DNA of 64,000 bases. Origin: an uncultured Ruminococcus sp. Its GTDB lineage: Bacteria; Bacillota; Clostridia; Oscillospirales; CAG-272. How positions within the stretch are numbered: the stretch's first letter is position 1; each line of letters opens with the position of its first letter. Below the pieces are notes generated by a model, which saw nothing but the letters and a program-made list of their open reading frames with translations, had not been told where the DNA came from and did not search any database. Made by a program: the position numbers and the translations under genes. Below are positions 4,360 through 59,757 of this stretch, piece after piece. Where the stretch lies: the NCBI GenBank assembly GCA_964463375.1, contig CAYXBQ010000005.1, forward strand, positions 32,698 through 96,697, read 5' to 3'.

Positions 4360-6291
4360 ATGGGACTGACACTGGCTGAAAAGATCCTGAAAGCCCATGT
4401 GGTGGATGGTGAATTTGTGAAGGGGAAAGAGATCGGTTTGAAGATCGACCAGACCTTGACCCAGGATGCGACGGGTACCATGGCGTATATCGAATTTGAA
4501 GCAATGGGCATCTCGCAGGTAAAGACCGAGCGTTCGGTAGCCTATATCGACCACAACACGTTACAGAACGGATTTGAGAATGCGGATGACCACCGGTTCA
4601 TTGGCTCCTGTGCCAAAAAGCACGGGATCTACTTCTCTCGTCCCGGCAACGGTATCTGCCACCAGGTGCATCTGGAACGGTTCGGCGTGCCCGGGAAGAC
4701 CCTGATCGGCTCTGACAGCCATACGCCTACCGGTGGTGGTCTGGGGATGCTGGCTATGGGTGCCGGCGGATTGGACGTGGCTGTAGCCATGGGCGGCGGT
4801 GCATACTACATCACCTACCCGAAGATCACCAATATCGTTCTCCATGGCAAGCTGCAGGACTGGGTGTCTGCCAAGGACGTGATCTTAGAGGTGCTGCGCC
4901 GGATGACCGTGAAGGGTGGCGTTGGCAAGATCATCGAATACACCGGGGATGGCGTGCAGACACTGAGCGTACCGGAAAGAGCGACCATCACCAATATGGG
5001 TGCTGAACTGGGTGCGTCTACTTCCATCTTCCCTTCTGACGACGTGACTAAGGCCTTCCTGGAAGCACAGGGGCGTGGGGACGTGTGGGTGCCGCTGTCT
5101 GCCGATGCAGATGCTGTATACGATGAGACCATCGAGATCGACCTGTCTGCGCTGGAACCCATGGTTGCCAGACCCCATTCGCCGGACAACGTATGTAAGA
5201 TCACGGAGCTGGGGCGGATGAAGGTAGACCAGGTATGTATCGGTTCCTGCACCAACAGCTCGCTGGCAGACATGATGAAGGTGGCATACATTCTCCGTGG
5301 CAAGACCGTACATCCCGATGTATCGCTGTCCATTGCGCCCGGCTCTAAGCAGGTGCTGACCATGCTGGCGGACAACCATGCCCTGGAAGACATGATCGCT
5401 GCCGGTGCTCGTGTGCTGGAATCTGCCTGCGGTCCCTGCATCGGTATGGGACAGTCTCCCAACTCTGCCGGTATTTCTCTCCGTACCTTCAACCGGAACT
5501 TTGAAGGACGCAGCGGTACCAGAGACGGGCAGATCTATCTGGTGTCTCCCGAAGTGGCTGCGGCTTCTGCCATTTGCGGCTATCTGGCGGATCCTCGTGA
5601 GCTGGGTATTATGCCCCAGATCCCCATGCCGGAGAAGTTTATGATCAACGACAATATGATCGCACTGCCGGCACCGGCTGACGAAGCAGACCAGGTGGAG
5701 ATCCTGCGTGGTCCCAACATCAAGGATTATCCGGCCACCGCACCTCTGGCAGACAGACTGGAATGCCCGGTTTCTCTGAAGGTCGGCGACAACATCACCA
5801 CCGACCATATCATGCCGGCCGGTGCCAAGATCCTGCCCCTGCGTTCCAATATCCCGGCCATCTCGGAGCACTGCTTTACCGTTTGCGATAAGGAATTCCC
5901 CCAAAGAGCCAAGGCACTGGGACAGAGCATCGTAGTTGGCGGCGTGAACTACGGACAGGGTTCGTCCAGAGAACATGCAGCTTTGGCACCGCTGTACCTG
6001 GGGATCAAGGCGGTACTGGTGAAATCCTTTGCCCGGATCCATCGTGCCAATCTGCTGAATGCCGGGATCATGCCCCTGGAATTCGTGAACGAAGGGGACT
6101 ATGACACCATCGATGCCGGAGATACGCTGGTGATCGAAGGACTGCGGGATGCTGTGGCCGATGGCAAGGACATCGTTGTGGTGAACCAGACCAAGGGACA
6201 CACCATTCCTGTAAAGTGCGAGCTGAGCAGCCGGATGCGGGATATTCTGCTGGCCGGTGGGCTGCTGGATTATACAAAGCAAAATGGCTGA
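4360..6291 (+). CDS. acn: Aconitate hydratase
   Basis: MGLTLAEKILKAHV start with SD ggaagga. Fe-S ligand region IGSCTNS and ...ACGPCIGMGQ, swivel domain VVGGVNYGQGSSREHAA. The upstream ATG at 4288 lacks an SD. Confidence 0.9.
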   Translation: MGLTLAEKILKAHVVDGEFVKGKEIGLKIDQTLTQDATGTMAYIEFEAMGISQVKTERSVAYIDHNTLQNGFENADDHRFIGSCAKKHGIYFSRPGNGICHQVHLERFGVPGKTLIGSDSHTPTGGGLGMLAMGAGGLDVAVAMGGGAYYITYPKITNIVLHGKLQDWVSAKDVILEVLRRMTVKGGVGKIIEYTGDGVQTLSVPERATITNMGAELGASTSIFPSDDVTKAFLEAQGRGDVWVPLSADADAVYDETIEIDLSALEPMVARPHSPDNVCKITELGRMKVDQVCIGSCTNSSLADMMKVAYILRGKTVHPDVSLSIAPGSKQVLTMLADNHALEDMIAAGARVLESACGPCIGMGQSPNSAGISLRTFNRNFEGRSGTRDGQIYLVSPEVAAASAICGYLADPRELGIMPQIPMPEKFMINDNMIALPAPADEADQVEILRGPNIKDYPATAPLADRLECPVSLKVGDNITTDHIMPAGAKILPLRSNIPAISEHCFTVCDKEFPQRAKALGQSIVVGGVNYGQGSSREHAALAPLYLGIKAVLVKSFARIHRANLLNAGIMPLEFVNEGDYDTIDAGDTLVIEGLRDAVADGKDIVVVNQTKGHTIPVKCELSSRMRDILLAGGLLDYTKQNG

Positions 6292-9012: not shown

Positions 9013-10080
9013 TTGGCAAGACCGAAGAAAGATTATCGAGAAGGACTGCCGCCGCTGGTAAAGGATTTTGCGACCTACAAGCTGACCATCCAGGGGTGCA
9101 GTGAAAAAACCGTGCAGGAATATCTGTTGGATCTGCGGACATTTTTGCGATACATGATGGCGGTGCGCAGTGGACTGCCGACCGAGGGAGACGAATTTGC
9201 ACAGATCGACATTTCTGCGATAGACAAGGATTTTTTGGCTTCTATCACCACGGGTGAGGTCTACGATTTTTTGGGGTACACCAAACGAGATCGGGAAAAC
9301 GAAAACAAGACCATGGCTCGCAAGCTGTCGTCGATCAAATCCTTTTACAAATATCTGACGGTAAAGCAGAAGCTGTTTGAGACCAATCCGGCTATCACCA
9401 TCGAAACGCCGAAGCAGAAAAAGCAGCTGCCCAAGCATCTTACGCTGTCGGAAAGCGAAGACCTATTGGATGCGGTGGAAACGGATAGTGCCTCCAAAAC
9501 CAAAGAGCGGGATTTTGCGATCCTGACGCTGTTTCTCAACTGCGGTATGCGTTTGTCGGAGCTGGCGGGGATCAGTCTACCGGATCTGGACACAGAGCTG
9601 CGTTCGCTGCGGGTCATGGGCAAAGGGGCAAAGGAACGGGTCATTTATTTGAACGATGCCTGTCGAGAAGCGTTGGAAGCCTATATGCCCATCCGCTTAG
9701 CTACACCGACCAAGGGGGACAATGCGTTGTTTTTGTCCAACCGGCAGCAGCGGATCAGCGTGAAGACGGTGCAGTGGATGGTGTACAAGTACCTGAAATC
9801 GGCGGGGCTGGAATACAAACATTACTCTACCCACAAGCTGCGGCATACGGCGGCTACGCTCATGTACCAGACCGGGCAGGTGGATATTCGAGTGCTCAAG
9901 GATATTTTGGGGCATGAACAGCTGAACACCACGCAGATCTACACCCATGTGGCCAATGCGGATATGGAATCTGCTATGGCAAAAAATCCGCTGGCACACC
10001 ACAAAGCGGCTTCTTCTACAGAAGCGTCTGTGGAGGACACTGAAAATGGGGAAGAAGCAGATCCAAATGATGCACAATAG
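9013..10080 (+). CDS. Tyrosine recombinase, XerC/XerD family (TTG start)
   Basis: SAM-like N-domain followed by the catalytic region: RDFAILTLFLNCGMRLSELAGI, HKLRHTAATLMYQ, LGHEQLNTTQIYTHV. It has an acidic 30-aa C-terminal tail. An extended -10 tggtataat lies at about 8966. Confidence 0.8.
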   Translation: MARPKKDYREGLPPLVKDFATYKLTIQGCSEKTVQEYLLDLRTFLRYMMAVRSGLPTEGDEFAQIDISAIDKDFLASITTGEVYDFLGYTKRDRENENKTMARKLSSIKSFYKYLTVKQKLFETNPAITIETPKQKKQLPKHLTLSESEDLLDAVETDSASKTKERDFAILTLFLNCGMRLSELAGISLPDLDTELRSLRVMGKGAKERVIYLNDACREALEAYMPIRLATPTKGDNALFLSNRQQRISVKTVQWMVYKYLKSAGLEYKHYSTHKLRHTAATLMYQTGQVDIRVLKDILGHEQLNTTQIYTHVANADMESAMAKNPLAHHKAASSTEASVEDTENGEEADPNDAQ

Positions 10081-10110
10081 CATTATAAATACATACCATG
10101 GAGGATACTT

Positions 10111-12384
10111 ATGAAAGAGTATATTCTGCATTTACAGGCACCGGCTACCGGCTGGGAGGATGGTACCCCGCTTGGCAATGGTGCCCAGGGGATGCTGTTC
10201 TGGGGAGACCCGCTGAAGGAACAGATCACGCTGAACGAAGAGACAATTTGGGCCGGTGGTCCTATGGACACCAAAAAAGACGACTATCGTGCGATCATCG
10301 ATCATGCACGGCAGCTCTTTTTGGAGGGACGGGAATGGGAGATCGATTCTTACATCGATACGGCGGGAGAAGATCTGTTCATGCGGATCCAATCCTATGA
10401 ATACGCCGGCAATCTGTGGATCGAGGATCTGGCTGCTGCCGATTGCACGATCACGGACTATCGACGGGATCTGGATCTTGTTCGGGGGAAAGCAGTGATC
10501 TCCTATCGCAAGAACGGCGTTTTGTACACCAGAGAGGCGTTTTCTTCCCATCCGGCGGGGCTGCAATGCGTGCGGTTCACGTCTGACGAACCTTTCTCGG
10601 TGGCACTGTCTTACACCAGAGAATGCATGGACAAGCTGGATGTACAGGAAGGCTGGCTCGTGGCACACTGCCATACGGCGACTGGGGAAAACAAATTCCG
10701 CACCTGCGTGAAGGTGGAGACCGATGGAACCCAGGTTGTTTGTGGGGATTCTCTGCACATCACGGGGGCAAGCCAGGTGGTCATGTACATCGGGACCTAT
10801 ACGGCATTCCGGCATGATTGTCTGGAATCTGCTTCGGCTGCCGGGATGATGAAGGCGTCTGCCGGATGGGATGCACTGCTGGCAGAACACATTGCGGACT
10901 TCTCTGCCATCATGTCCCGTACGGATATCGATCTGGTACCCCAGGGAGATGCGCTTGCCGATATGCCCATTCCGGAACGGTTGGCACGGCTGAAGGAGGA
11001 CGAAAATGCCACTGATGCGGGGCTGATCTCGCTGTACTATCAGTTCGGGAAGTATCTGCTGGTTTCGTCCAGTAGAGAAGATTCGTTGCCGGCCAATCTG
11101 CAAGGTGTTTGGTCGGAGGGCATGCAGTCGCCCTGGAATGCGGATTACCATACCAATATCAATCTGCAAATGAACTATTGGCATGCCGAGGAAGCCGGAC
11201 TTCCGGAATCGGTGGAGGCACTGTTCACCTATATGAACGACTACCTCCTGCCCGGTGGACAAAAGGTTGCTGCGGAGAATTACCATGCTCGTGGGATGGT
11301 GGTACACCATGTCAGCGATATTTATGGCTTTGCGGCGGCTGCTGACGGTCCTTGGGGAATGTGGCCCATGGGCGGTGCTTGGCTGGCATACCACATGTGG
11401 GAACACTGGCTGTACACGGGGGATGTAGATTTCCTGCGGCATACGGCATACCAGTACATCCGGGAAAGTGCGTTGTTCTTTATGGATATGCTCTTTGACG
11501 ATGGACATGGTAGACTGCTGTCCGGACCTTCTACTTCTCCGGAGAATCGGTTCCTTGTGCAGGACGATAAGGGTGAGGTGCAGTGTGCCTACATCACCAT
11601 GTCGCCTACGATGGACACGGAGATCATTGGTGGTCTGCTGCGGTTCTATGGGGAGACGGAAAAGGTACTGGGCATCCACCCGGACGATGGTGTGACGGCT
11701 GTAGAAATGGCGAACAAGCTGCCGCCGCTTTCGGTGGGCAAGCATGGTCAGCTCATGGAATGGGTGAAGGATTACGACGAGGCAGAACCGGGACACAGAC
11801 ATATCTCCCATGCCTTTGGCCTGTATCCGGCTGCTCAGATCACCAGAGCAACGCCGGAGCTGTACAAGGCGATCCGTGTCACGCTGGACAGACGACTGGC
11901 CTCCGGCGGTGGGCATACCGGTTGGAGCCGGGCTTGGCTGATCAACCTGTTTGCACGTCTGCGGGATGGCGAAGCGGTGTACCAGAATGTGCGGGCACTG
12001 TTCACACGTTCTACCCTGCCCAACCTGTTTGACACCCATCCGCCGTTCCAGATCGATGGGAATTTCGGTGGTGCGGCCGGCATTGGCGAGATGGTGATGC
12101 AGAGCCACGAAGGCTTCATTTCCCTGCTGCCTGCGCTGTCGAAGGAGCTGCACACGGGTTCCTTTACCGGTCTTTGCGCTCGTGGTGGCTATACGGTAGA
12201 TGCGACCTGGAAAGACGGGGGCGTGGTAGCGTTCGCGGTGTCCTCTGCGGATAACAAGGCGGTAACGGTGGAAGTGCCAGTGGCAGATGGTACGGTATAC
12301 AAGGATGCTGCGGGGAAAAAATATGTGGTTTCCGGCGGGAAGGTAGTGCTTAATGGCAATTCTTCGTTGACTATTGACAAATAA
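10111..12384 (+). CDS. Glycoside hydrolase family 95 (alpha-L-fucosidase-like)
   Basis: 757 aa. N-terminus APATGWEDGTPLGNGAQGMLFWGDPLKEQITLNEETIWAGG and LPANLQGVWSEGMQSPWNADYHTNINLQMNYW are GH95 signatures. No signal peptide. Confidence 0.85.
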   Translation: MKEYILHLQAPATGWEDGTPLGNGAQGMLFWGDPLKEQITLNEETIWAGGPMDTKKDDYRAIIDHARQLFLEGREWEIDSYIDTAGEDLFMRIQSYEYAGNLWIEDLAAADCTITDYRRDLDLVRGKAVISYRKNGVLYTREAFSSHPAGLQCVRFTSDEPFSVALSYTRECMDKLDVQEGWLVAHCHTATGENKFRTCVKVETDGTQVVCGDSLHITGASQVVMYIGTYTAFRHDCLESASAAGMMKASAGWDALLAEHIADFSAIMSRTDIDLVPQGDALADMPIPERLARLKEDENATDAGLISLYYQFGKYLLVSSSREDSLPANLQGVWSEGMQSPWNADYHTNINLQMNYWHAEEAGLPESVEALFTYMNDYLLPGGQKVAAENYHARGMVVHHVSDIYGFAAAADGPWGMWPMGGAWLAYHMWEHWLYTGDVDFLRHTAYQYIRESALFFMDMLFDDGHGRLLSGPSTSPENRFLVQDDKGEVQCAYITMSPTMDTEIIGGLLRFYGETEKVLGIHPDDGVTAVEMANKLPPLSVGKHGQLMEWVKDYDEAEPGHRHISHAFGLYPAAQITRATPELYKAIRVTLDRRLASGGGHTGWSRAWLINLFARLRDGEAVYQNVRALFTRSTLPNLFDTHPPFQIDGNFGGAAGIGEMVMQSHEGFISLLPALSKELHTGSFTGLCARGGYTVDATWKDGGVVAFAVSSADNKAVTVEVPVADGTVYKDAAGKKYVVSGGKVVLNGNSSLTIDK

Positions 12385-22385: not shown

Positions 22386-22726
22386 TGTGTTCACCTCCTT
22401 CTTATCTGAGTTACTTGGTTTTTGGCCTTGCAAATAACCATGAATAGTATACCATAGAATCTGCATCTGTGCATTAAATCTGGAAAATTTTTCAACTTTT
22501 TTGAAAATTTTTTGTACCACAATATATTGCGTTTCTACAGTTATAAAAATACCATACGTTGTAAAATTTGATTTTGTAGAACAGCATTATTCGCGTTTTG
22601 AATTTCATGACATTTTTTTGTGTCAGGAAAATGGGCGGATTTTGGGCTTTTTTAGTGGCAAAAACAGCAAAAAAAGAACCACGTTCCCTCCTGTCACAGG
22701 GACGTAGTTCTTCCATATTTTTGTGG

Positions 22727-23923
22727 TTATTTCGCTTGTTTTGTATCCAATTCGTTGCCGTATCGATCGTATAAAATCGCATTGTCCTTTTTCGATTTAT
22801 GCCACACGTTGGTCTCTCCCGCCCAGATGAGCGCTTCGTTGGAGCCGGCACAGCCTATGGTAATACTTTCTCCGGCAGGCAATACGGTACCTTCCGGGAA
22901 GACGAACAGTTCACTGCCTCGGTCGGAATAGAGATAATAGCCGGTCAGGTCGGTGGTATCGCCGGTATTCTCAATGGTGATCGTCTGGTCCTCAATGGAT
23001 ACAGCGGTGATCGTGAGACTGGCCGTGGGAGGAACTTCGATTTTTGCATTGGTGATATACCGAAAGGTGTCTTGCAGATCGATGCACCAGCCCAGGTCTG
23101 CGTCTTCTGTTAGGCGTACTTCCCCAGTCTGGCGTAGGCGAGCGATGACCTTTTCATTTGCGGTGTCCGGATCGGTCTCGGTGTTACAGCAAATGATGGA
23201 AAGGTTTGGTGTACATGCATCTAAGAAAGCTTGACTGGTGGCACCTTTGCGGCCATGATACGGCACCTTTAGTATGTCGCAGTCCAAACGATAGCCGGTG
23301 GAAAGCAGATCTGCTTCTTCGAGCTCCTTCATATCGCCTGTGAATAATACCGTTTCTTCGCCACATTCTAACCGTAGGATCAACGAATTGTTGTTTTCTT
23401 CATCCGGATACAACGTGATGGGACATAGTACGTCCAAATACAGACCTTCGTCTCCAATGGGCACGGACTGACCTGGTGTCAGGGTCTCATAGGGGATCTC
23501 GTTCGCCAAAGCGGCATAGGTGTCCGGTGCTTCGTTCAAGGCGGCGGTGTACAGTTTCCCAATGGAATATCGCTGCCGGATACCGTTCCAGCCACCGATA
23601 TGATCCTTGTCCGAATGGGTCAGGAACACGGCTTCGATGGCTTCTGTATCCATATAGGCAAGGGCTGCTAAGATCTGGGGGACGGAGCTGTCCTCGCCGG
23701 TATCGATCAGGTAGGTCTTGCCGTCGGCTTCCAGGATCGTGCAGTCCGCTTTGCCGGCATTCACAAACAACATCCGCACTGTGTGGTCACCGCTGTCCAT
23801 GGCAAAGGTGTCCTCCGACAAAGTGGCAGGATCGATGTTTGCATGGGGCTGCGTATCGGTGGTGGGATCTGCGCTACAGCCGGTCAGAAGCAGCACCAGC
23901 AGCAGTGTTACAGCTTTTTTCAT
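22727..23923 (-). CDS. Lipoprotein with a ComEC-type MBL-fold hydrolase domain and a C-terminal lamin-tail (LTD) domain
   Basis: Lipobox LLVLLLTGC|S. MBL motif AVFLTHSDKDHIGG. C-terminus TITIENTGDTTDLTGYYLYSDRGSELFVFPEGTVLPAGESITIGCAG is an LTD-like beta-sandwich. SD aaggaag lies 7 nt before the ATG at 23923. Terminator hairpin at 22672-22715. Confidence 0.7.
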   Translation of the reverse strand: MKKAVTLLLVLLLTGCSADPTTDTQPHANIDPATLSEDTFAMDSGDHTVRMLFVNAGKADCTILEADGKTYLIDTGEDSSVPQILAALAYMDTEAIEAVFLTHSDKDHIGGWNGIRQRYSIGKLYTAALNEAPDTYAALANEIPYETLTPGQSVPIGDEGLYLDVLCPITLYPDEENNNSLILRLECGEETVLFTGDMKELEEADLLSTGYRLDCDILKVPYHGRKGATSQAFLDACTPNLSIICCNTETDPDTANEKVIARLRQTGEVRLTEDADLGWCIDLQDTFRYITNAKIEVPPTASLTITAVSIEDQTITIENTGDTTDLTGYYLYSDRGSELFVFPEGTVLPAGESITIGCAGSNEALIWAGETNVWHKSKKDNAILYDRYGNELDTKQAK

Positions 23924-26573: not shown

Positions 26574-27377
26574 TTACTTTACGTCAAAGGGATCGATCAG
26601 GTTATGCATGTTCACCATCAGTTCCGGTACGGGAACGGTGCGGCCGCACTCGAATGCTAAGTATCTGTCGTAGCCCTTTTCCCGGATGGCCTTGAACACG
26701 TTGGTGTAGTTGATCTCACCGGTGCCGGGTTCGTTTCTGCCGGGGTTGTCACCGATGTGGAAGTGACCGATCAGATCGATGTTGTTCTGGATGTTGCGGA
26801 TCACGTTGCCTTCGGAGATCTGCTGATGATAGATATCGAACAGGATCTTACAGTTGGGGCTATCTACAGCCTTGATCATAGCCACGGCCTGTTCGGTGGT
26901 CACCAGGTAATAGCCCATGTGGTTCACCAGGATGTTCAGGGGTTCCAGCACGATCATGATGCCTTCGGCTTCTGCGATCTTGGACAGCTCCTTCAGCGTG
27001 CCAACGCAGGTGTTGAACTGTTCTTCGCTGGAAACGTCGCTGCGGAGATTACCAACAGTGGCGCAGATATTGGGTACACCCATGATCTTAGCAGCGGCAA
27101 CAGATTCCTTGAAGGACTGGATGAAGATCTCCCGGGTATCTTCCCAAACCATGCCGTGGGACCATGCCATCTGGGTATTGTAATCCGGATTTTCTCTGGA
27201 CTGGATGATGATACAGGTGGAAGTCACGCCGGTCTCATCCAGGGTAGCCTTTGCCTTAGCCAGATCCAGATGTGCCCAACCCAGCTGTTCTACTGCCTGA
27301 AAACCATACTTTGCGCCGGTGCGAACGTTCTGATACCAGTCGCCGCCAAACCAGCCGCCTGCTGCGGAAAATTTCAT
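26574..27377 (-). CDS. Hydroxypyruvate-isomerase-like sugar phosphate isomerase/epimerase (TIM barrel)
   Basis: 267 aa. MIVLEPLN, LFDIYHQQISEGN, HFHIGDNPGRNEPGTGEINY. Confidence 0.75.
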   Translation of the reverse strand: MKFSAAGGWFGGDWYQNVRTGAKYGFQAVEQLGWAHLDLAKAKATLDETGVTSTCIIIQSRENPDYNTQMAWSHGMVWEDTREIFIQSFKESVAAAKIMGVPNICATVGNLRSDVSSEEQFNTCVGTLKELSKIAEAEGIMIVLEPLNILVNHMGYYLVTTEQAVAMIKAVDSPNCKILFDIYHQQISEGNVIRNIQNNIDLIGHFHIGDNPGRNEPGTGEINYTNVFKAIREKGYDRYLAFECGRTVPVPELMVNMHNLIDPFDVK

Positions 27378-27651
27378 AATGGACCTATCCTTTCTGCATA
27401 TCTATTGTATGCACAAGCACACATGCGGTATGCGCATCGTGTACCTGGAGTGATTGGAAATATTCTGTATTCGGAGATCGGAGCCAAGACCAGCTCCATT
27501 CCTACGCACAACCATGTGCGATAGAATCTGGTATTATTGTACATGATTGGCGGCCGTTTGTCAACAGGAAATGACAAATTTACCCGGGAGAAAGTGGAAA
27601 ATTTTTCTTGTGGGGGGTGCTATATGGGAAAAACGCACAAAATCCAGCGAT

Positions 27652-28557
27652 TCATCGGGAACTGCCGCTTCTATGGAAATAGTCGGTGAGCCGCATTTGG
27701 CAAATCTGTAGGACTGTATCGACATCGTCCACGGTCAGGCCATCGTATATTTCTTGCCGCAGCGAAAACATTCGTGTAGTTTGATCATAGGTGAAGAAAC
27801 CACTTTTGCAAAGTGCGGCTACGGGATTGCGGATCAGGTTGCTTTCGATCTCCTTGTCCGTTGCAGCCGGGTCGGCATACACACAGTTCCCTTTTTCGAC
27901 CGGCAGACCGTTTTGGATCCGTTCTGCATAGTATCTTCTGAAAAAGGCAGCCGCCTCTCGGATCGAGAGCTGTCCGCCGCTTTGCAGGGCTGCTATGATC
28001 AGGATCGGCTTATAGGAGCGTGCCATCGCCATTGTCTGGAAATATCGCAGGAAGGCATCGCTTTCGGCAGTGGCGATGGTGTTGACTGCCTTATGGGAAC
28101 CTGCACGGATCTGTTGTCCCAGGCTTTCGTATAGTTTGCCGATCGACTTTTCTTGAAAATCCAGAGAAAGCATATTGTCATCCAGCCAACAGCTACGCAA
28201 ATAGTTGTTCACACGGATATTGCTGCCACGCATGGTCTTGTCCGCCATAAGGATCTGGTGCTTGTCTTCATAGGTAAGAACGTGCAGGATATAGTAGGGT
28301 ATGGCACGATCGATCTCTCGCAGCAGACGTTTGTCCAACGTTTTGTTGCGTAGCTTGGTCTCAAAAACCTCGATCTCTGGAAAAGCACCAATGCGTTCTA
28401 TACCAAAGGTTTCCCGAGAAAGCTTGTTTCGCCACCAGAGTTCCTGTATCTGCTCCGTATACAGCGTGCGATAGTTTGGCTTTCGGATGGCCCGTAAAAA
28501 GATCATCTTTTGTGGGATCCGGCTATTTACTTCGGTTTGGGCTGGCAGCATGAGCAT
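27652..28557 (-). CDS. Orphan DUF4391-like protein fused to a DUF3427-like winged-helix C-terminal module
   Basis: N-terminal half: LPAQTEVNSRIPQKMIF..., FPEIEVFETKLRNKTLDKRLLREIDRAIPYYILHVLTYEDKHQILMADK..., matching the remembered DUF4391 pattern. C-terminal half: ARSYKPILIIAALQSGGQLSIREAAAFFRRYYAERI...ICQMRLTDYFHR. SD agagga lies 7 nt upstream. Confidence 0.55.
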   Translation of the reverse strand: MLMLPAQTEVNSRIPQKMIFLRAIRKPNYRTLYTEQIQELWWRNKLSRETFGIERIGAFPEIEVFETKLRNKTLDKRLLREIDRAIPYYILHVLTYEDKHQILMADKTMRGSNIRVNNYLRSCWLDDNMLSLDFQEKSIGKLYESLGQQIRAGSHKAVNTIATAESDAFLRYFQTMAMARSYKPILIIAALQSGGQLSIREAAAFFRRYYAERIQNGLPVEKGNCVYADPAATDKEIESNLIRNPVAALCKSGFFTYDQTTRMFSLRQEIYDGLTVDDVDTVLQICQMRLTDYFHRSGSSR

Positions 28558-28648
28558 ATGGTCGTCCTCTTTTACAAAATATAGGATATCTTATATTATT
28601 GTAACATAATGGATCGCATTTTGCAATAGGATGCAAAAAAATGCAACC

Positions 28649-30688
28649 TCATGCCATATGGCTATCCACATGGATCCCGTCTGCTGTGCGCTGTACCGAT
28701 ACGGTGAGCTTGCCCTGCGGCGTGGTGATAAAGCCTTTGGCATACTGCATGTTGGCGGGAAGCTGGGGATGGATCTCGTATTTTGCAAAGTCGGGGGTCA
28801 GGGGCTTGATCCCTAAGATGCCGGAGAACAGCTGTCTTGCCGGGGCACCAAACATGGGATGGCAGTGGGAGCCGTACAACCAATGTTCCCAGATCGTAGT
28901 GGCACCGTGTCGTTTCATGTACAGGTAGGAGCCGGGGCCATCGTTTTCCATGAGCTTTCCGAACACATCGGCGTGACCCGTGGCAAACAGCAGGTCACAG
29001 AGAATATCGGTGGCGAGAAAACCAGTATCAAAATGGCCGAGCGTATCATAATAGGCTACGCATTCGTCGGCATTGACAAGTCCCAGCGATGCACCGTAGA
29101 CCAGTCTGCCCTGCCCTTTTTCGTAGTCCCCAGAGAAATAGGTGGCTTTGATCGCTGCCAATGTATCAGCCTCCAGCTGGCCATAGGCGTAGGTCTCTCC
29201 CAGCGCGTCGGCGATCTCGTGCAGCATTTCTAAGGATTTTACCAGATAATAGCTGTTCACCAACGGTTCCGGGATGGTGCATTTTTCCAGCGTACACCAG
29301 TCGCCGAGGCACCAGCCGCCTTCTTCCTCCCGTACGACCAGCCCATTCTCACTGTGTGCCAACAGGTAGCCGATCCATTTTTGCATGGCTGGGTAGGCTT
29401 TTCGCAGGATGTCGGTGTCGCCAAAGGTCTTCCAGTACTGATACGGAACGATGATCACGGCACAGCCCCAGCCGCCAGGGCCGCCACCACCGCCCATGAA
29501 CGGTGCCGTATGCTGGATATGTCCGGAATCCGGATCCTGACAGTCTAAGATATCCTGGATCCATTTGCGGTAGAAGGCACGGCTGTCCAGCAGGAGCATG
29601 GCGGTCTGGGCTGTGATCTGGCCATCGCCGGTGTAGCCCAGTCGTTCTCTGTGAGGACAGTCGGAGGGAAAGCTGCCGTGCATATTGTCCAGCTCGGTGC
29701 GGATGTACGCATCAAAGAGGAAATTGCAGCCTTCGCTGTCCGACTCGAACCCGGCGGTCACAGCCACATCGGCATGGACGACCACGACTTCTGCTTCGGC
29801 AAATTCTCCGTCGATATCGAAATAGCGGAAGCAGTGCCACACGAATTTGGGCTCGAAGATGCGTTCTGTGCCGTCGCACACGAAGGTATCGGTCATGATC
29901 TGCGGTTTACCGGTGGAACAGGTGTAGCCGGCACCGGTGGAGGCAAAGTCGAGAGCACCATCTTTTTGTTCTTCGGCAAAACGGAGGGTGATCTTTCCCG
30001 TATAACCAGGCTTGGTTTTGATCCGCACATAGCCGCTGATATTTTCCCCTGCATCGTAGATATTGCCGCATGGCTTGGGTACAATGGTTCGAATGATCCG
30101 GTCCGGTGCGCCGATCTCCGGGCACAGGAGGGAATTGGGAGCCGGCAGAAGCATTACAGGGTGGGTCTCTATGGAAACGGTCGGGTCGATGATCTCGCCA
30201 ATGAACAGGTTGGAGTAGACGATCTCGCTGTTTTGCCAGGTCTCGCTGCCGTCGGAGACGATGGTGTGGTCGGGCCATGCAAGGGCATACAGGCACTTCA
30301 CCCGGTCGCCAAAGGACATCTCTCCCTCGGCGATCCGTTCCTCCTGCACATACCAACCGCCACCCAGCTGGATCTCCAACAGGTTTTCGCCATCCTGCAG
30401 CAGGTCGGTCAAATCGAAGGTTTTGTAGTAGATGCGATGGGTGAAATGGTCGTGGCAGGGGTAGGTGATCTTCTGAAATGTACGGGGTTCATAATCGGTG
30501 GGGTTTGGGGAGAGTAGATCCTGACCCAGCTTTTGGCCGTTCAGTCTGGCCTCAAAATAGCCTAAGCCTGTGATGTACAGGGTGACAGCTTCGTTTTTGT
30601 TGGCGTGGAATTTGCGCTGGATGATGGGGGAGGCACAGGGGGTGTTTGGTGCGATCCAATGGGCGGTTTGTAAAAGATGCAGTGACAT
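28649..30688 (-). CDS. GH78-like alpha-L-rhamnosidase
   Basis: LYITGLGYFEARLNGQKLGQDLLSPNPTDY and SDCPHRERLGYTGDGQITAQ (DCPxRE-x-GWTGD motif), six-hairpin domain. The ATG lies 4 nt after the SBP stop. Confidence 0.75.
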   Translation of the reverse strand: MSLHLLQTAHWIAPNTPCASPIIQRKFHANKNEAVTLYITGLGYFEARLNGQKLGQDLLSPNPTDYEPRTFQKITYPCHDHFTHRIYYKTFDLTDLLQDGENLLEIQLGGGWYVQEERIAEGEMSFGDRVKCLYALAWPDHTIVSDGSETWQNSEIVYSNLFIGEIIDPTVSIETHPVMLLPAPNSLLCPEIGAPDRIIRTIVPKPCGNIYDAGENISGYVRIKTKPGYTGKITLRFAEEQKDGALDFASTGAGYTCSTGKPQIMTDTFVCDGTERIFEPKFVWHCFRYFDIDGEFAEAEVVVVHADVAVTAGFESDSEGCNFLFDAYIRTELDNMHGSFPSDCPHRERLGYTGDGQITAQTAMLLLDSRAFYRKWIQDILDCQDPDSGHIQHTAPFMGGGGGPGGWGCAVIIVPYQYWKTFGDTDILRKAYPAMQKWIGYLLAHSENGLVVREEEGGWCLGDWCTLEKCTIPEPLVNSYYLVKSLEMLHEIADALGETYAYGQLEADTLAAIKATYFSGDYEKGQGRLVYGASLGLVNADECVAYYDTLGHFDTGFLATDILCDLLFATGHADVFGKLMENDGPGSYLYMKRHGATTIWEHWLYGSHCHPMFGAPARQLFSGILGIKPLTPDFAKYEIHPQLPANMQYAKGFITTPQGKLTVSVQRTADGIHVDSHMA

Positions 30689-57996: not shown

Positions 57997-59574
57997 TCAC
58001 AGCATCGGTGCGATGATATCTAAGATACACCGATACAGCCGACGTAGGAAGGGGACCTTGCAGTCTTCCAAATGGATCTCTCGGCTGGCGGCCAGCATAT
58101 GCTGACAGTCGGTCTTGATATCCTGGATCACGGGAGTTTTGTACATCCACACGCCGCACTCGAAATGGAGGAACAGGCTGCGGAAATCCAAATTCACACT
58201 ACCCACGGTGGCGTACAGGTCGTCGCAGACAAAGGTCTTGGCGTGTACAAAGCCGGGGGTATATTCATATACACGCACGCCGTTTTCCAGCAGGTATTTG
58301 TAGTAGGATTTGGTGGTCTCGTTGATGGTCTTTTTGTCCGGGATCCCCGGTGTGATGATCCGCACGTCTACGCCGCTTTTGGCCGCACAGCACAGAGCCT
58401 GCTTCATCTGTTCATCGATGATCAGGTACGGTGTGGTGATCCAGACATACCGGGTGGCCTGGTACAGCATATGCAGGTAGATATTCTCTCCCACCGGCTC
58501 ATTGTCCAACGGATTGTCGGTATAGGGCTGTACGATGCCATGCCCTGGGGGGATCTGACGAGTGGCCGGGCGGTATTTTTCGTAATGATTTTCTTCCGGT
58601 CTGGCAGGTGGCTTATCCAGGTAATCCCACATAGTCAGGAACATGAGGGTAAAGCTCCAGGCTGCCTCGCCGCGCACCAGTACAGCATTGTCCTTCCAGT
58701 AGCCGTGGGGGTGTGTCTCGTTGATGTATTCGTCGGCGATATTGACCCCGCCGGTGAAGGCTGTATATCCATCGATCACGCAGATCTTGCGGTGGTCCCG
58801 GTTGTTTTGGCGGGCATCCAGCACAGGCACAAAGGGATGGAACACATGGCATTGGATCCCGCATTCCTGTAGCTCCTTCGGATACTGGCGACTTAAGCGG
58901 GTGATGCTGCCGAAATCGTCGTAGATCACACGGACATCCACACCGGCTGCTGCCTTTTGCACGAGCACACTGCGGATCGCTTCCCACATTTTGCCGTGAC
59001 CGATGATGAAATATTCTAAGAAGATATAATGCTCTGCTTTTTCCAGCTCCGGGATCAGCGCTTCTAAAAACGCTTCGCCGGTGGGATAATAGGTGCTTTC
59101 CGTATGTCGGTACGGCGGACACATGCTCATGCGATCCATGTACGCAGCCTGTCTTCCGGCGTCCGGATTTTCGGCATACAATTCCCGCAGCACATCCGAC
59201 TGATCCTCTTTCTGGGATTCGGTGATGGAGGTGATGCGGCTCATGGTCTGCTTGACTTTTTTCGACAGTGTATTGGCACTGAAAATGTAATACATGCCCA
59301 CGCCAACCGGCTGAAACAGGAATACGACCACGATCCATGCGATCTTATAGCCGGGATTGAAGTCGGTGCTGATCACGTGGCAGGCACCCAAAAAGGAGAT
59401 CACAGAGGAGATGGAGACCAGGATGTAGTAATGTTCCGTAAACCGCAGGATCCAGACCGCAATGAGCACGATCTGCAGTAGGATGAGGATCCCCACCAGC
59501 ACGACACGGCTGAACAGCAGCTTTATCAGCGGACGAAGGATATTGCGGCTTTTTCGTTTTTTGTCTTTTGGCAT
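57997..59574 (-). CDS. cls: Cardiolipin synthase
   Basis: Two N-terminal TM helices and two HKD motifs (HRKICVIDG, VHAKTFVCDD). The ATG at 59574 follows aaaagga. Confidence 0.85.
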   Translation of the reverse strand: MPKDKKRKSRNILRPLIKLLFSRVVLVGILILLQIVLIAVWILRFTEHYYILVSISSVISFLGACHVISTDFNPGYKIAWIVVVFLFQPVGVGMYYIFSANTLSKKVKQTMSRITSITESQKEDQSDVLRELYAENPDAGRQAAYMDRMSMCPPYRHTESTYYPTGEAFLEALIPELEKAEHYIFLEYFIIGHGKMWEAIRSVLVQKAAAGVDVRVIYDDFGSITRLSRQYPKELQECGIQCHVFHPFVPVLDARQNNRDHRKICVIDGYTAFTGGVNIADEYINETHPHGYWKDNAVLVRGEAAWSFTLMFLTMWDYLDKPPARPEENHYEKYRPATRQIPPGHGIVQPYTDNPLDNEPVGENIYLHMLYQATRYVWITTPYLIIDEQMKQALCCAAKSGVDVRIITPGIPDKKTINETTKSYYKYLLENGVRVYEYTPGFVHAKTFVCDDLYATVGSVNLDFRSLFLHFECGVWMYKTPVIQDIKTDCQHMLAASREIHLEDCKVPFLRRLYRCILDIIAPML

Positions 59575-59757
59575 ATTTTCTATTCTGATCCTTTTCTCGG
59601 AGAAACACAAAGAGACAAGAAAAAACGCCCCCATTGTGCTAACCTATATCATACACGATTCTGCGGAAAAAGTCAAGTCAATTTCCTCTTGTTTTTTGCA
59701 AAGTTTTGTGCTATACTACCATTGGTACCCTATTTTACCATCATGGAGGACATAAAC

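Follow-up and report, generated by a model that had tools for sequence, protein, structure and literature searches.

A DUF4391–winged-helix gene of a restriction-type defence cluster persists alone and under purifying selection in an uncultured Ruminococcus

We analysed a 64,000-nucleotide stretch from an uncultured Ruminococcus sp. (assembly GCA_964463375.1, contig CAYXBQ010000005.1, positions 32,698 to 96,697; hereafter the window) and, within it, a minus-strand gene encoding a 301-amino-acid (aa) protein that joins a DUF4391 domain to a C-terminal winged-helix module. Homologues of this gene sit in exactly those clusters that combine an SNF2(HKD) helicase, DUF4391 and the Mod and Res genes of a type III restriction-modification (R-M) system, whereas the window copy stands without any partner. 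Domain identity, family, normal genomic context, solo state and selection are all established below, and the window gene is under purifying selection. On balance, we consider it probable that the gene is a functional solo survivor of a defence-module accessory subunit, which would act either in trans with a helicase/R-M system outside the window or through partner-independent binding. The open reading frame (ORF) and its two domains are as follows.

27652..28557, minus strand: long DUF4391–winged-helix ORF, 301 aa plus stop, ATG start, single stop
28093..28557, minus strand: DUF4391 core domain, aa 1–155 (Pfam PF14335 and AlphaFold model)
27655..28080, minus strand: C-terminal 'RSYKP' winged-helix module, aa 160–301 (AlphaFold and Foldseek; no Pfam match)

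The ORF is a real gene, far beyond chance, given its Pfam score, 27 homologues with 54 invariant columns and a confident AlphaFold model. PF14335 matched aa 2–155 (E = 5e-26; 92.5 bits against a gathering cut-off of 29.9 bits), confirming the DUF4391 assignment that the initial annotation had made for the N-terminal half, and the five peptides it had quoted were all found in the translation (5/5). Coverage of the profile was incomplete (positions 1–170 of 232), and PF14335 was present in 26/26 listed full-length homologues. This long-form family comprised 27 full-length proteins of 294–303 aa with 44–98% identity, in which both halves were equally conserved; the 54 invariant columns were spread over both halves and all were kept in the window protein. 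The start codon agreed with the M-L-x-L-P N-terminus common to all homologues. Among GTDB species representatives, the closest long-form homologue was 61% identical to the window protein.

Genomic contexts were recovered for ~18 long-form lineages, and ~14 independent lineages (43–69% identical) had one cluster layout. This comprised, in order, an HKD (phospholipase D, PLD)+SNF2 helicase (~1,075 aa), the long DUF4391–winged-helix protein, a short DUF4391 protein (199–215 aa), cargo, an N6_N4 methyltransferase (Mod, 620–680 aa), further cargo and a ResIII + RE_endonuc protein (Res, ~1,020–1,040 aa). The partners matched the PADLOC models 'HKD+Snf2' (E = 9e-121), MTase_III (E = 1e-224) and REase_III (E = 1e-287). 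That DUF4391 belongs to helicase plus N6-methyltransferase clusters had been anticipated correctly, but as the third gene; the long form is the second, directly after the SNF2 helicase. In these clusters the long gene started 1–30 bp after the SNF2-HKD gene or overlapped it, and on plasmids the short DUF4391 gene overlapped the helicase gene by 4 bp, a tight spacing which suggests that DUF4391 is a stoichiometric partner of the helicase-nuclease.

The core system lacking the long form, its DUF4391 being the short one alone, was far more widespread than the long-form clusters; its range took in Alphaproteobacteria, Bacteroidales and Clostridia as well as plasmids of enterobacteria and roseobacters. 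In proteins of SNF2(HKD)-DUF4391-Mod-Res systems, such as WP_049015597.1 of a Citrobacter freundii plasmid, the N-terminal 155–190 aa were homologous to the window protein; WYL-domain regulators lay upstream of the cluster on the Citrobacter plasmid. The long form was mostly confined to gut and rumen bacteria of the Ruminococcus/Ruminococcaceae type. Since the core system without it is widespread, including on annotated plasmids, the long form is an add-on.

The next-best PADLOC models for the cluster helicase were those of DISARM DrmD. Like Class 1 DISARM (DrmD SNF2, DrmC PLD, DrmMI N6-methyltransferase), the homologues' cluster combines HKD/PLD+SNF2 with an N6/N4 methyltransferase, but it has neither DrmA nor DrmB (DUF1998); in their place it carries DUF4391 together with both type III genes, Mod and Res. 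None of these partner components occurs in the window, and PADLOC contains no model for DUF4391.

The two variable slots of the cluster (short DUF4391–Mod and Mod–Res) were read in L001, L002, L004, L008, L038, L040, L123 and L124, and held differing cargo, including several hitless ORFs. Cargo in metagenomic clusters included PDC-S32/AbiJ_NTD4, PDC-S15/FRG, DUF3644+EC042_2821 and RhuM, and cargo on plasmids an ATP-dependent endonuclease with DUF2130 and an RNA-binding-domain protein. The slots resemble a hot-spot for defence cargo within an R-M operon. One contig carried a rearranged cluster (L041:584-2887 and 9985-10230) with the 3' end of the SNF2 gene, a split extra DUF4391 copy (111 + 147 aa) and the long and short genes, followed by 7 kb of housekeeping genes (acetyltransferase, RecG, glycosyltransferase, small acid-soluble protein) and then, on the other strand, the 3' end of Res. 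Such an arrangement resembles an intermediate of inversion or erosion.

The placement of DUF4391 directly after an SNF2-type helicase with methyltransferase and Res, seen in ~14 lineages, was not found in the window. Searches with 23 partner proteins from four clusters (tblastn, whole 64 kb) returned nothing at E < 0.01 besides the ORF itself, bearing out the earlier statement that the vicinity is free of helicase, methylase and nuclease genes. Six-frame reading of both flanking spacers found no partner relics, and neither tblastn nor six-frame reading recovered a relic of the expected short DUF4391 gene in the 274-bp downstream spacer. Five further contigs encode the identical protein in this same setting, and a sixth (L006) encodes a 98% variant; together they come from six sequencing runs.

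A related genome (neighbour protein 90% identical) was syntenic with the window from the promoter of the adjacent AP_endonuc_2 gene downstream; upstream of that promoter, it carried an unrelated secreted protein. Homology with this genome started at window position ~27573, 79 bp past the stop codon of the gene. The GC content at third codon positions (GC3) of the gene was 0.58, lower than in any of the nine further genes compared, its neighbours among them (0.62–0.71). This synteny break and low GC3 place the gene at a rearrangement or acquisition boundary. Around the gene, a search for insertion scars or terminal repeats gave only chance matches of 12–14 nt, and the window showed no synteny with loci that bear the cluster, L038 among them, where a rhamnosidase lies beside the Res gene. 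Either the cluster was lost around the window gene, or the gene arrived alone at a rearrangement point.

Solo copies were not confined to this locus. A second solo lineage, 61–62% identical, was flanked by NUDIX and α/β-hydrolase genes; it was present on several contigs and in a Ruminococcus metagenome-assembled genome (MAG). A third, 46% identical, was found in a human-gut Ruminococcaceae MAG and two metagenome contigs, with a variable upstream junction. In a neighbour-joining tree, which carries no bootstrap support, the three solo lineages were interspersed with cluster-borne ones; solo L016 and cluster-borne L002 were 85% identical. The ORF was intact in every solo contig seen (>14). Selection on solo and cluster-borne copies compared as follows.

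Window gene against the 97%-identical strain L006, solo: dN/dS (ratio of non-synonymous to synonymous substitution rates) 0.083; 20 synonymous and 6 non-synonymous changes; binomial p = 7e-9 against neutrality
L014 against L034 (second solo lineage), solo in the same context: dN/dS 0.24; dS 0.41
Cluster-borne pairs, as comparators: dN/dS 0.09–0.16

These data bear on the possibility that the gene is an inert relic, left over only recently from a deleted defence island, with no remaining function and not yet decayed. The absence of all partners from the window, the synteny breakpoint with its slightly atypical GC3 and the existence of an eroded or rearranged cluster at L041 would fit such a history. 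Against it, the window gene departs strongly from neutrality, the second solo lineage has persisted to a dS of 0.41 with a dN/dS of 0.24, and the start signals are intact. A decaying relic is unlikely because of the purifying selection, the intact solo copies and the retention of 54/54 invariant residues; of the options offered by the initial annotation, a remnant or a trans-acting partner may each still hold, only a decaying remnant being disfavoured, and we regard an inert relic as improbable.

In the third solo lineage, the solo gene was divergently transcribed from a gene for a 1,598-aa fusion protein (L016:4576-9372, minus strand) that joins DEAD/Helicase_C (RecQ-like) to a superfamily 1 helicase of UvrD type, and whose N-terminal region appeared exonuclease-like by eye. 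This giant helicase was considered as a replacement partner and rejected, since L044 and L046 carry the solo gene but lack that upstream region.

The immediate surroundings of the window gene were resolved into the following features.

28565..28569, minus strand: Shine-Dalgarno sequence GAGGA, 7 nt 5' of the ATG, read from the sequence
28578..28626, minus strand: two overlapping sigma-70-like promoter matches in the 91-bp upstream spacer (consensus matches only)
28649..30688, minus strand: upstream GH78 rhamnosidase gene, its stop facing the 91-bp spacer
27378..27651, minus strand: 274-bp downstream spacer, holding the AP_endonuc_2 promoter; synteny with the related genome from ~27573
27564..27536, minus strand: near-consensus promoter TTGACA-17-TACAAT of AP_endonuc_2 (11/12 matches)
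26574..27377, minus strand: downstream AP_endonuc_2 gene (TIM-barrel isomerase), its start facing the 274-bp spacer

The ORF coordinates and the 274- and 91-bp spacers given earlier were exact, on the minus strand, and a Shine-Dalgarno sequence is present as had been stated. The upstream spacer (28558-28648, 31% GC) separates the gene from the rhamnosidase stop, and its promoter-like sites read TTGCAA-17-TACAAT with a TG extension and GTTACA-16-TATATT by consensus matching. In the related genome L125, the promoter stretch of AP_endonuc_2 (27528-27573) is 85% conserved, and synteny begins exactly there. Neighbours on the same strand included a sugar-binding protein, the GH78 rhamnosidase, the AP_endonuc_2/TIM-barrel isomerase, a nitroreductase and a transglutaminase/SLH protein, and an AraC regulator was present in the sugar cluster; the description of the gene as stranded among sugar genes thus stands, with housekeeping genes among its neighbours as well. 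The ten largest ORFs of the window encoded GH95, GH42, GH28, a beta-helix protein, aconitase, SecA, a cardiolipin-synthase-type PLD, SpoIVA, a BspA-type leucine-rich-repeat protein and one hitless product. The sole PLD/HKD-family protein of the window (57997-59634, minus strand; PLDc_N + PLDc + PLDc_2) was rejected as a nuclease partner of the solo gene on account of its cardiolipin-synthase architecture. A metallo-β-lactamase-fold protein with a weak Pfam match to Anti-Pycsar_Apyc1 and an LTD domain (L125:7076-8317 and L126:3772-5013) belongs to the conserved downstream neighbourhood, and homologous DNA lies at ~22718-23833 of the window.

Such surroundings raise the question of a domesticated regulator, in which DUF4391 would act in sensing or oligomerisation and the winged helix would have been co-opted to form a one-component-type DNA-binding regulator of the neighbouring carbohydrate genes. 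The gene is co-directional with the rhamnosidase/sugar-binding-protein/AP_endonuc_2 string, the second solo lineage is placed after GH43 and NUDIX genes, a sensor-like domain followed by a winged helix is a fitting layout, and purifying selection acts on the solo state. Yet the three solo lineages occupy three unrelated neighbourhoods, glycoside hydrolases are everywhere in this genome, and the sugar cluster already has its AraC regulator. Furthermore, the close relative retains the downstream operon and promoter without the 301-aa gene, and the winged helix is not basic. We consider this explanation unlikely.

Solitary R-M components such as orphan methyltransferases are a known phenomenon. 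Like the window gene, they represent one gene of a multi-gene defence system that persists alone under selection; unlike them, the window protein has no recognisable enzymatic domain, and by this analogy the benefit of lone retention would not be obvious. One variant of the comparison is that the solo protein acts as an immunity or anti-addiction factor, which might neutralise or titrate incoming SNF2-HKD/type III modules in the manner of orphan methyltransferases or antitoxins. Solo retention in three lineages interspersed with cluster-borne ones is compatible with such a role, as are the position directly after the nuclease-helicase gene, which fits a tightly coupled binding partner, and the lack of a recognisable catalytic domain. 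The proposal is pure analogy, though, and most such systems run on the short DUF4391 only, so the long form would be no obligatory antidote. An immunity factor in this strict sense therefore seems quite improbable.

AlphaFold2, run with a 27-sequence alignment, modelled the 301-aa protein with high confidence (predicted local distance difference test, pLDDT, 91; predicted template modelling score, pTM, 0.88) as an α/β N-domain (1–153), a short low-confidence linker and a C-domain (160–301). The DUF4391 core was α/β with strands at 9–13, 37–46, 62–69, 89–96, 99–110 and 113–121, and was basic (pI 9.6). The long and short DUF4391 paralogues shared 34% identity across aa 1–193. Beyond ~190 residues the short form had only a helical tail, corresponding to the last ~60 positions of the PF14335 model, and in the long form this tail is replaced by the 140-aa winged-helix module. 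No catalytic domain was recognised in the 301-aa protein by Pfam, NCBIfam and PADLOC scans; NCBIfam, PADLOC and PHROGs scans of the window protein gave no match, and neither did a PADLOC scan of the short DUF4391. A PD-(D/E)xK nuclease reading of the N-domain (conserved E61, E63, D83 and K99) was discarded, since strand order and motif placement misfit and no structural match was obtained. CorA was likewise rejected as a structural relative (Foldseek template modelling score, TM, ~0.13). A phage-collection record without annotation, the 13-kb human-faecal 'Bacteriophage sp.' contig MT836075.1, also encodes a DUF4391 core (4717-5169, H16; 38% identical over aa 1–150), which may be carried by a phage or belong to a mis-binned defence island. 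In the searchable literature, DUF4391 was mentioned only non-functionally, in a gene-content table and as an apparent slip for DUF7941, and a search for 'PF14335' returned no occurrence.

The C-module was predicted to consist of a lead helix (160–175), H1 (182–192), a β-strand (196–198), H2 (199–215), H3 (234–251), wing strands (255–258 and 263–266) and C-terminal helices (268–298). This H1-β1-H2-H3-β2-wing-β3 topology is that of a winged helix with extra flanking helices (AlphaFold pLDDT 91), and modelling the C-domain in isolation gave the same structure as in the whole protein. Foldseek of the C-domain alone against the PDB returned only winged-helix domains (Cdc6/ORC winged-helix domain, forkhead, MarR, MukE, JetB and Csa3), with probability ≤0.92, TM up to 0.55 on the target, all E ≥ 0.098 and identity of 10–16%. 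Because these E-values are weak (≥0.098), the winged-helix assignment holds at the level of the fold only, and at that level the structural check proposed in the initial annotation supported a winged helix for the C-terminal half. Cdc6/ORC, forkhead, MarR and the kite proteins MukE and JetB share the H-β-H-H-β-β topology, whereas the C-module showed no sequence relation to them, even with a broad profile, and has its extra flanking helices and its own RSYKP, NP..AL and YY motifs. The full signature reads M.M..SYKP.L, Y/FF..FY..R, E, NP..AL and C..L..YY/YF, in that order. A Pfam scan at E ≤ 10 of the window C-half and the C-domains of 14 other family members gave no match, and profile searches of the PDB with the full family, the C-domain and a broad C-module profile gave chance-level matches only. 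Three apparent profile relatives were rejected: influenza HA2 (chance level, E ≥ 0.03), LsoA (E = 9e-4, with neither stretch significant and the match gone with a broader profile) and a fibronectin-binding protein (chance level, E 0.011).

We further investigated the distribution of this module by searching the C-domain profile against 1.84 billion cluster representatives. It was found in 474 representatives at E ≤ 1e-3 (196 at E ≤ 1e-10), occurring alone, N-terminally or C-terminally in proteins of ~130 to 1,517 aa. Pfam scans of 117 module-carrying proteins identified the fusion partners. These included restriction-type domains (GmrSD_N/GmrSD_C, with or without Macro; Mrr_cat; REase_MTES_1575), NADAR in some proteins, and helicases or methylases (ResIII, SNF2, Helicase_C, a C5 DNA methylase). 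Further partners were ParA-type ATPases, serine recombinases, a sigma-70 factor, an RNA polymerase alpha C-terminal-domain protein and DUF6339. A BFVD match placed the module on a phage-encoded DUF262 (GmrSD-like) protein (TM 0.91, E = 1e-8). A very common human-gut class of ~338–340 aa carried the 'SYKP' winged-helix module C-terminally behind an unrelated ~200-aa N-domain (L064-L090 and others, such as L071:7377-8396; P0040, P0045, P0046, P0050 and P0056). That N-domain has the motif MLVILSQKVD..YHYP.RY..GD.F.YYQGNR and, judged from its sequence, looks β-rich and reader-like; neither half of the class matched Pfam.

The initial annotation had read the C-terminal half as a DUF3427-type winged-helix module and the whole protein as a possible new minimal architecture, that is, DUF4391 fused to a modification-sensing domain as a stand-alone sensor. 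A separate winged-helix-type domain found on nuclease and helicase defence proteins was borne out; its identity as DUF3427 (PF11907) was not. Of the two Pfam profiles it had named, PF14335 matched the protein and PF11907 did not, with no match of the latter in 15 C-domains at E ≤ 10 or in 117 module-carrying proteins at E ≤ 0.01 or 0.001. DUF3427 is the target-recognition domain of SauUSI, with a PUA-like secondary structure described (PMC6765204), which also contradicts the view of DUF3427 itself as a winged helix; the C-module, by comparison, shows no sequence match to it and is predicted to be mainly helical with a two-strand wing. There is a functional parallel, in that the DUF3427 of SauUSI/McaZI-type enzymes is, like the C-module, an accessory non-catalytic part of restriction or defence nucleases or helicases (PMC6765204), and the GmrSD and Mrr partners of the C-module are of the modification-dependent type, as with DUF3427. 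Nevertheless, the architecture is the norm inside the clusters, and the SNF2/type III R-M cluster is the normal home of a conserved family rather than a new minimal system. A DUF3427-based stand-alone sensor is accordingly very hard to sustain. The long DUF4391–winged-helix protein is not a new kind of system; the analysis delimits a long subfamily with its extra module, met here in a recurrent solo state under selection.

Returning to the solo-survivor reading, we infer a subunit or adaptor role for the long protein, a ligand for its winged helix and a function for the solo copy as follows. In clusters, the long protein would be a non-catalytic accessory subunit of the helicase-nuclease, its DUF4391 core docking to the helicase-nuclease or the short paralogue and its winged-helix module, which also decorates type IV (modification-dependent) restriction enzymes and ADP-ribose-processing domains, supplying target or ligand recognition. 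The most economical model would be that the long protein is an adaptor or recognition subunit through which the helicase-nuclease gains a further target or ligand specificity. The window gene would have parted from all its partners through loss of the remainder of the cluster or lone transfer at the rearrangement point, and could since act in trans on a system outside the 64 kb, serve an autonomous binding or regulatory function or play an immunity-like role. That the long protein has an autonomous selectable function without the helicase/R-M cluster, as a stand-alone sensor for modified or foreign nucleic acid or an immunity factor directed at invading SNF2-HKD/type III modules, is a tentative proposal that we hold to be possible but less than probable.

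Several observations weigh against the solo-survivor reading. The partner search covered the 64-kb window, and a trans partner elsewhere in the genome is hypothetical. In two MAGs with other solo copies, no second DUF4391 locus was found, with a peptide pattern that misses some short forms and in MAGs that are incomplete. Foldseek of the whole 301-aa model against the PDB gave nothing at E < 0.01, and the N-domain had no significant neighbour; likewise, no experimental study or structure of any DUF4391 protein was found in the searchable literature. The C-module is neutral to acidic (net charge 0 and pI 6.8 in the window protein; family median pI 5.6) and its structural neighbours include the protein-binding winged helices MukE and JetB, so that DNA binding by the modelled domain is not assured. 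Given its neutral to slightly acidic character, the module could have a protein or a modified base as its ligand in place of generic DNA.

Finally, these results single out DUF4391 as an uncharacterised part of a widespread, unnamed module that joins an HKD-SNF2 helicase to type III R-M and carries cargo hot-spots, and that spans Clostridia, Bacteroidales and Proteobacteria, including conjugative plasmids. The C-module is a candidate recognition domain absent from Pfam and merits a Pfam entry. An autonomous function of the long DUF4391–winged-helix protein, if true, would explain its solo retention at least three separate times, and its 'RSYKP' module would in that case be a novel domain for recognition, shuffled widely among type IV restriction systems (GmrSD, Mrr) and conflict systems with NADAR or Macro. 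This repeated solo survival offers a simple handle on function, because work on the protein need not include its 1,000-aa partners.

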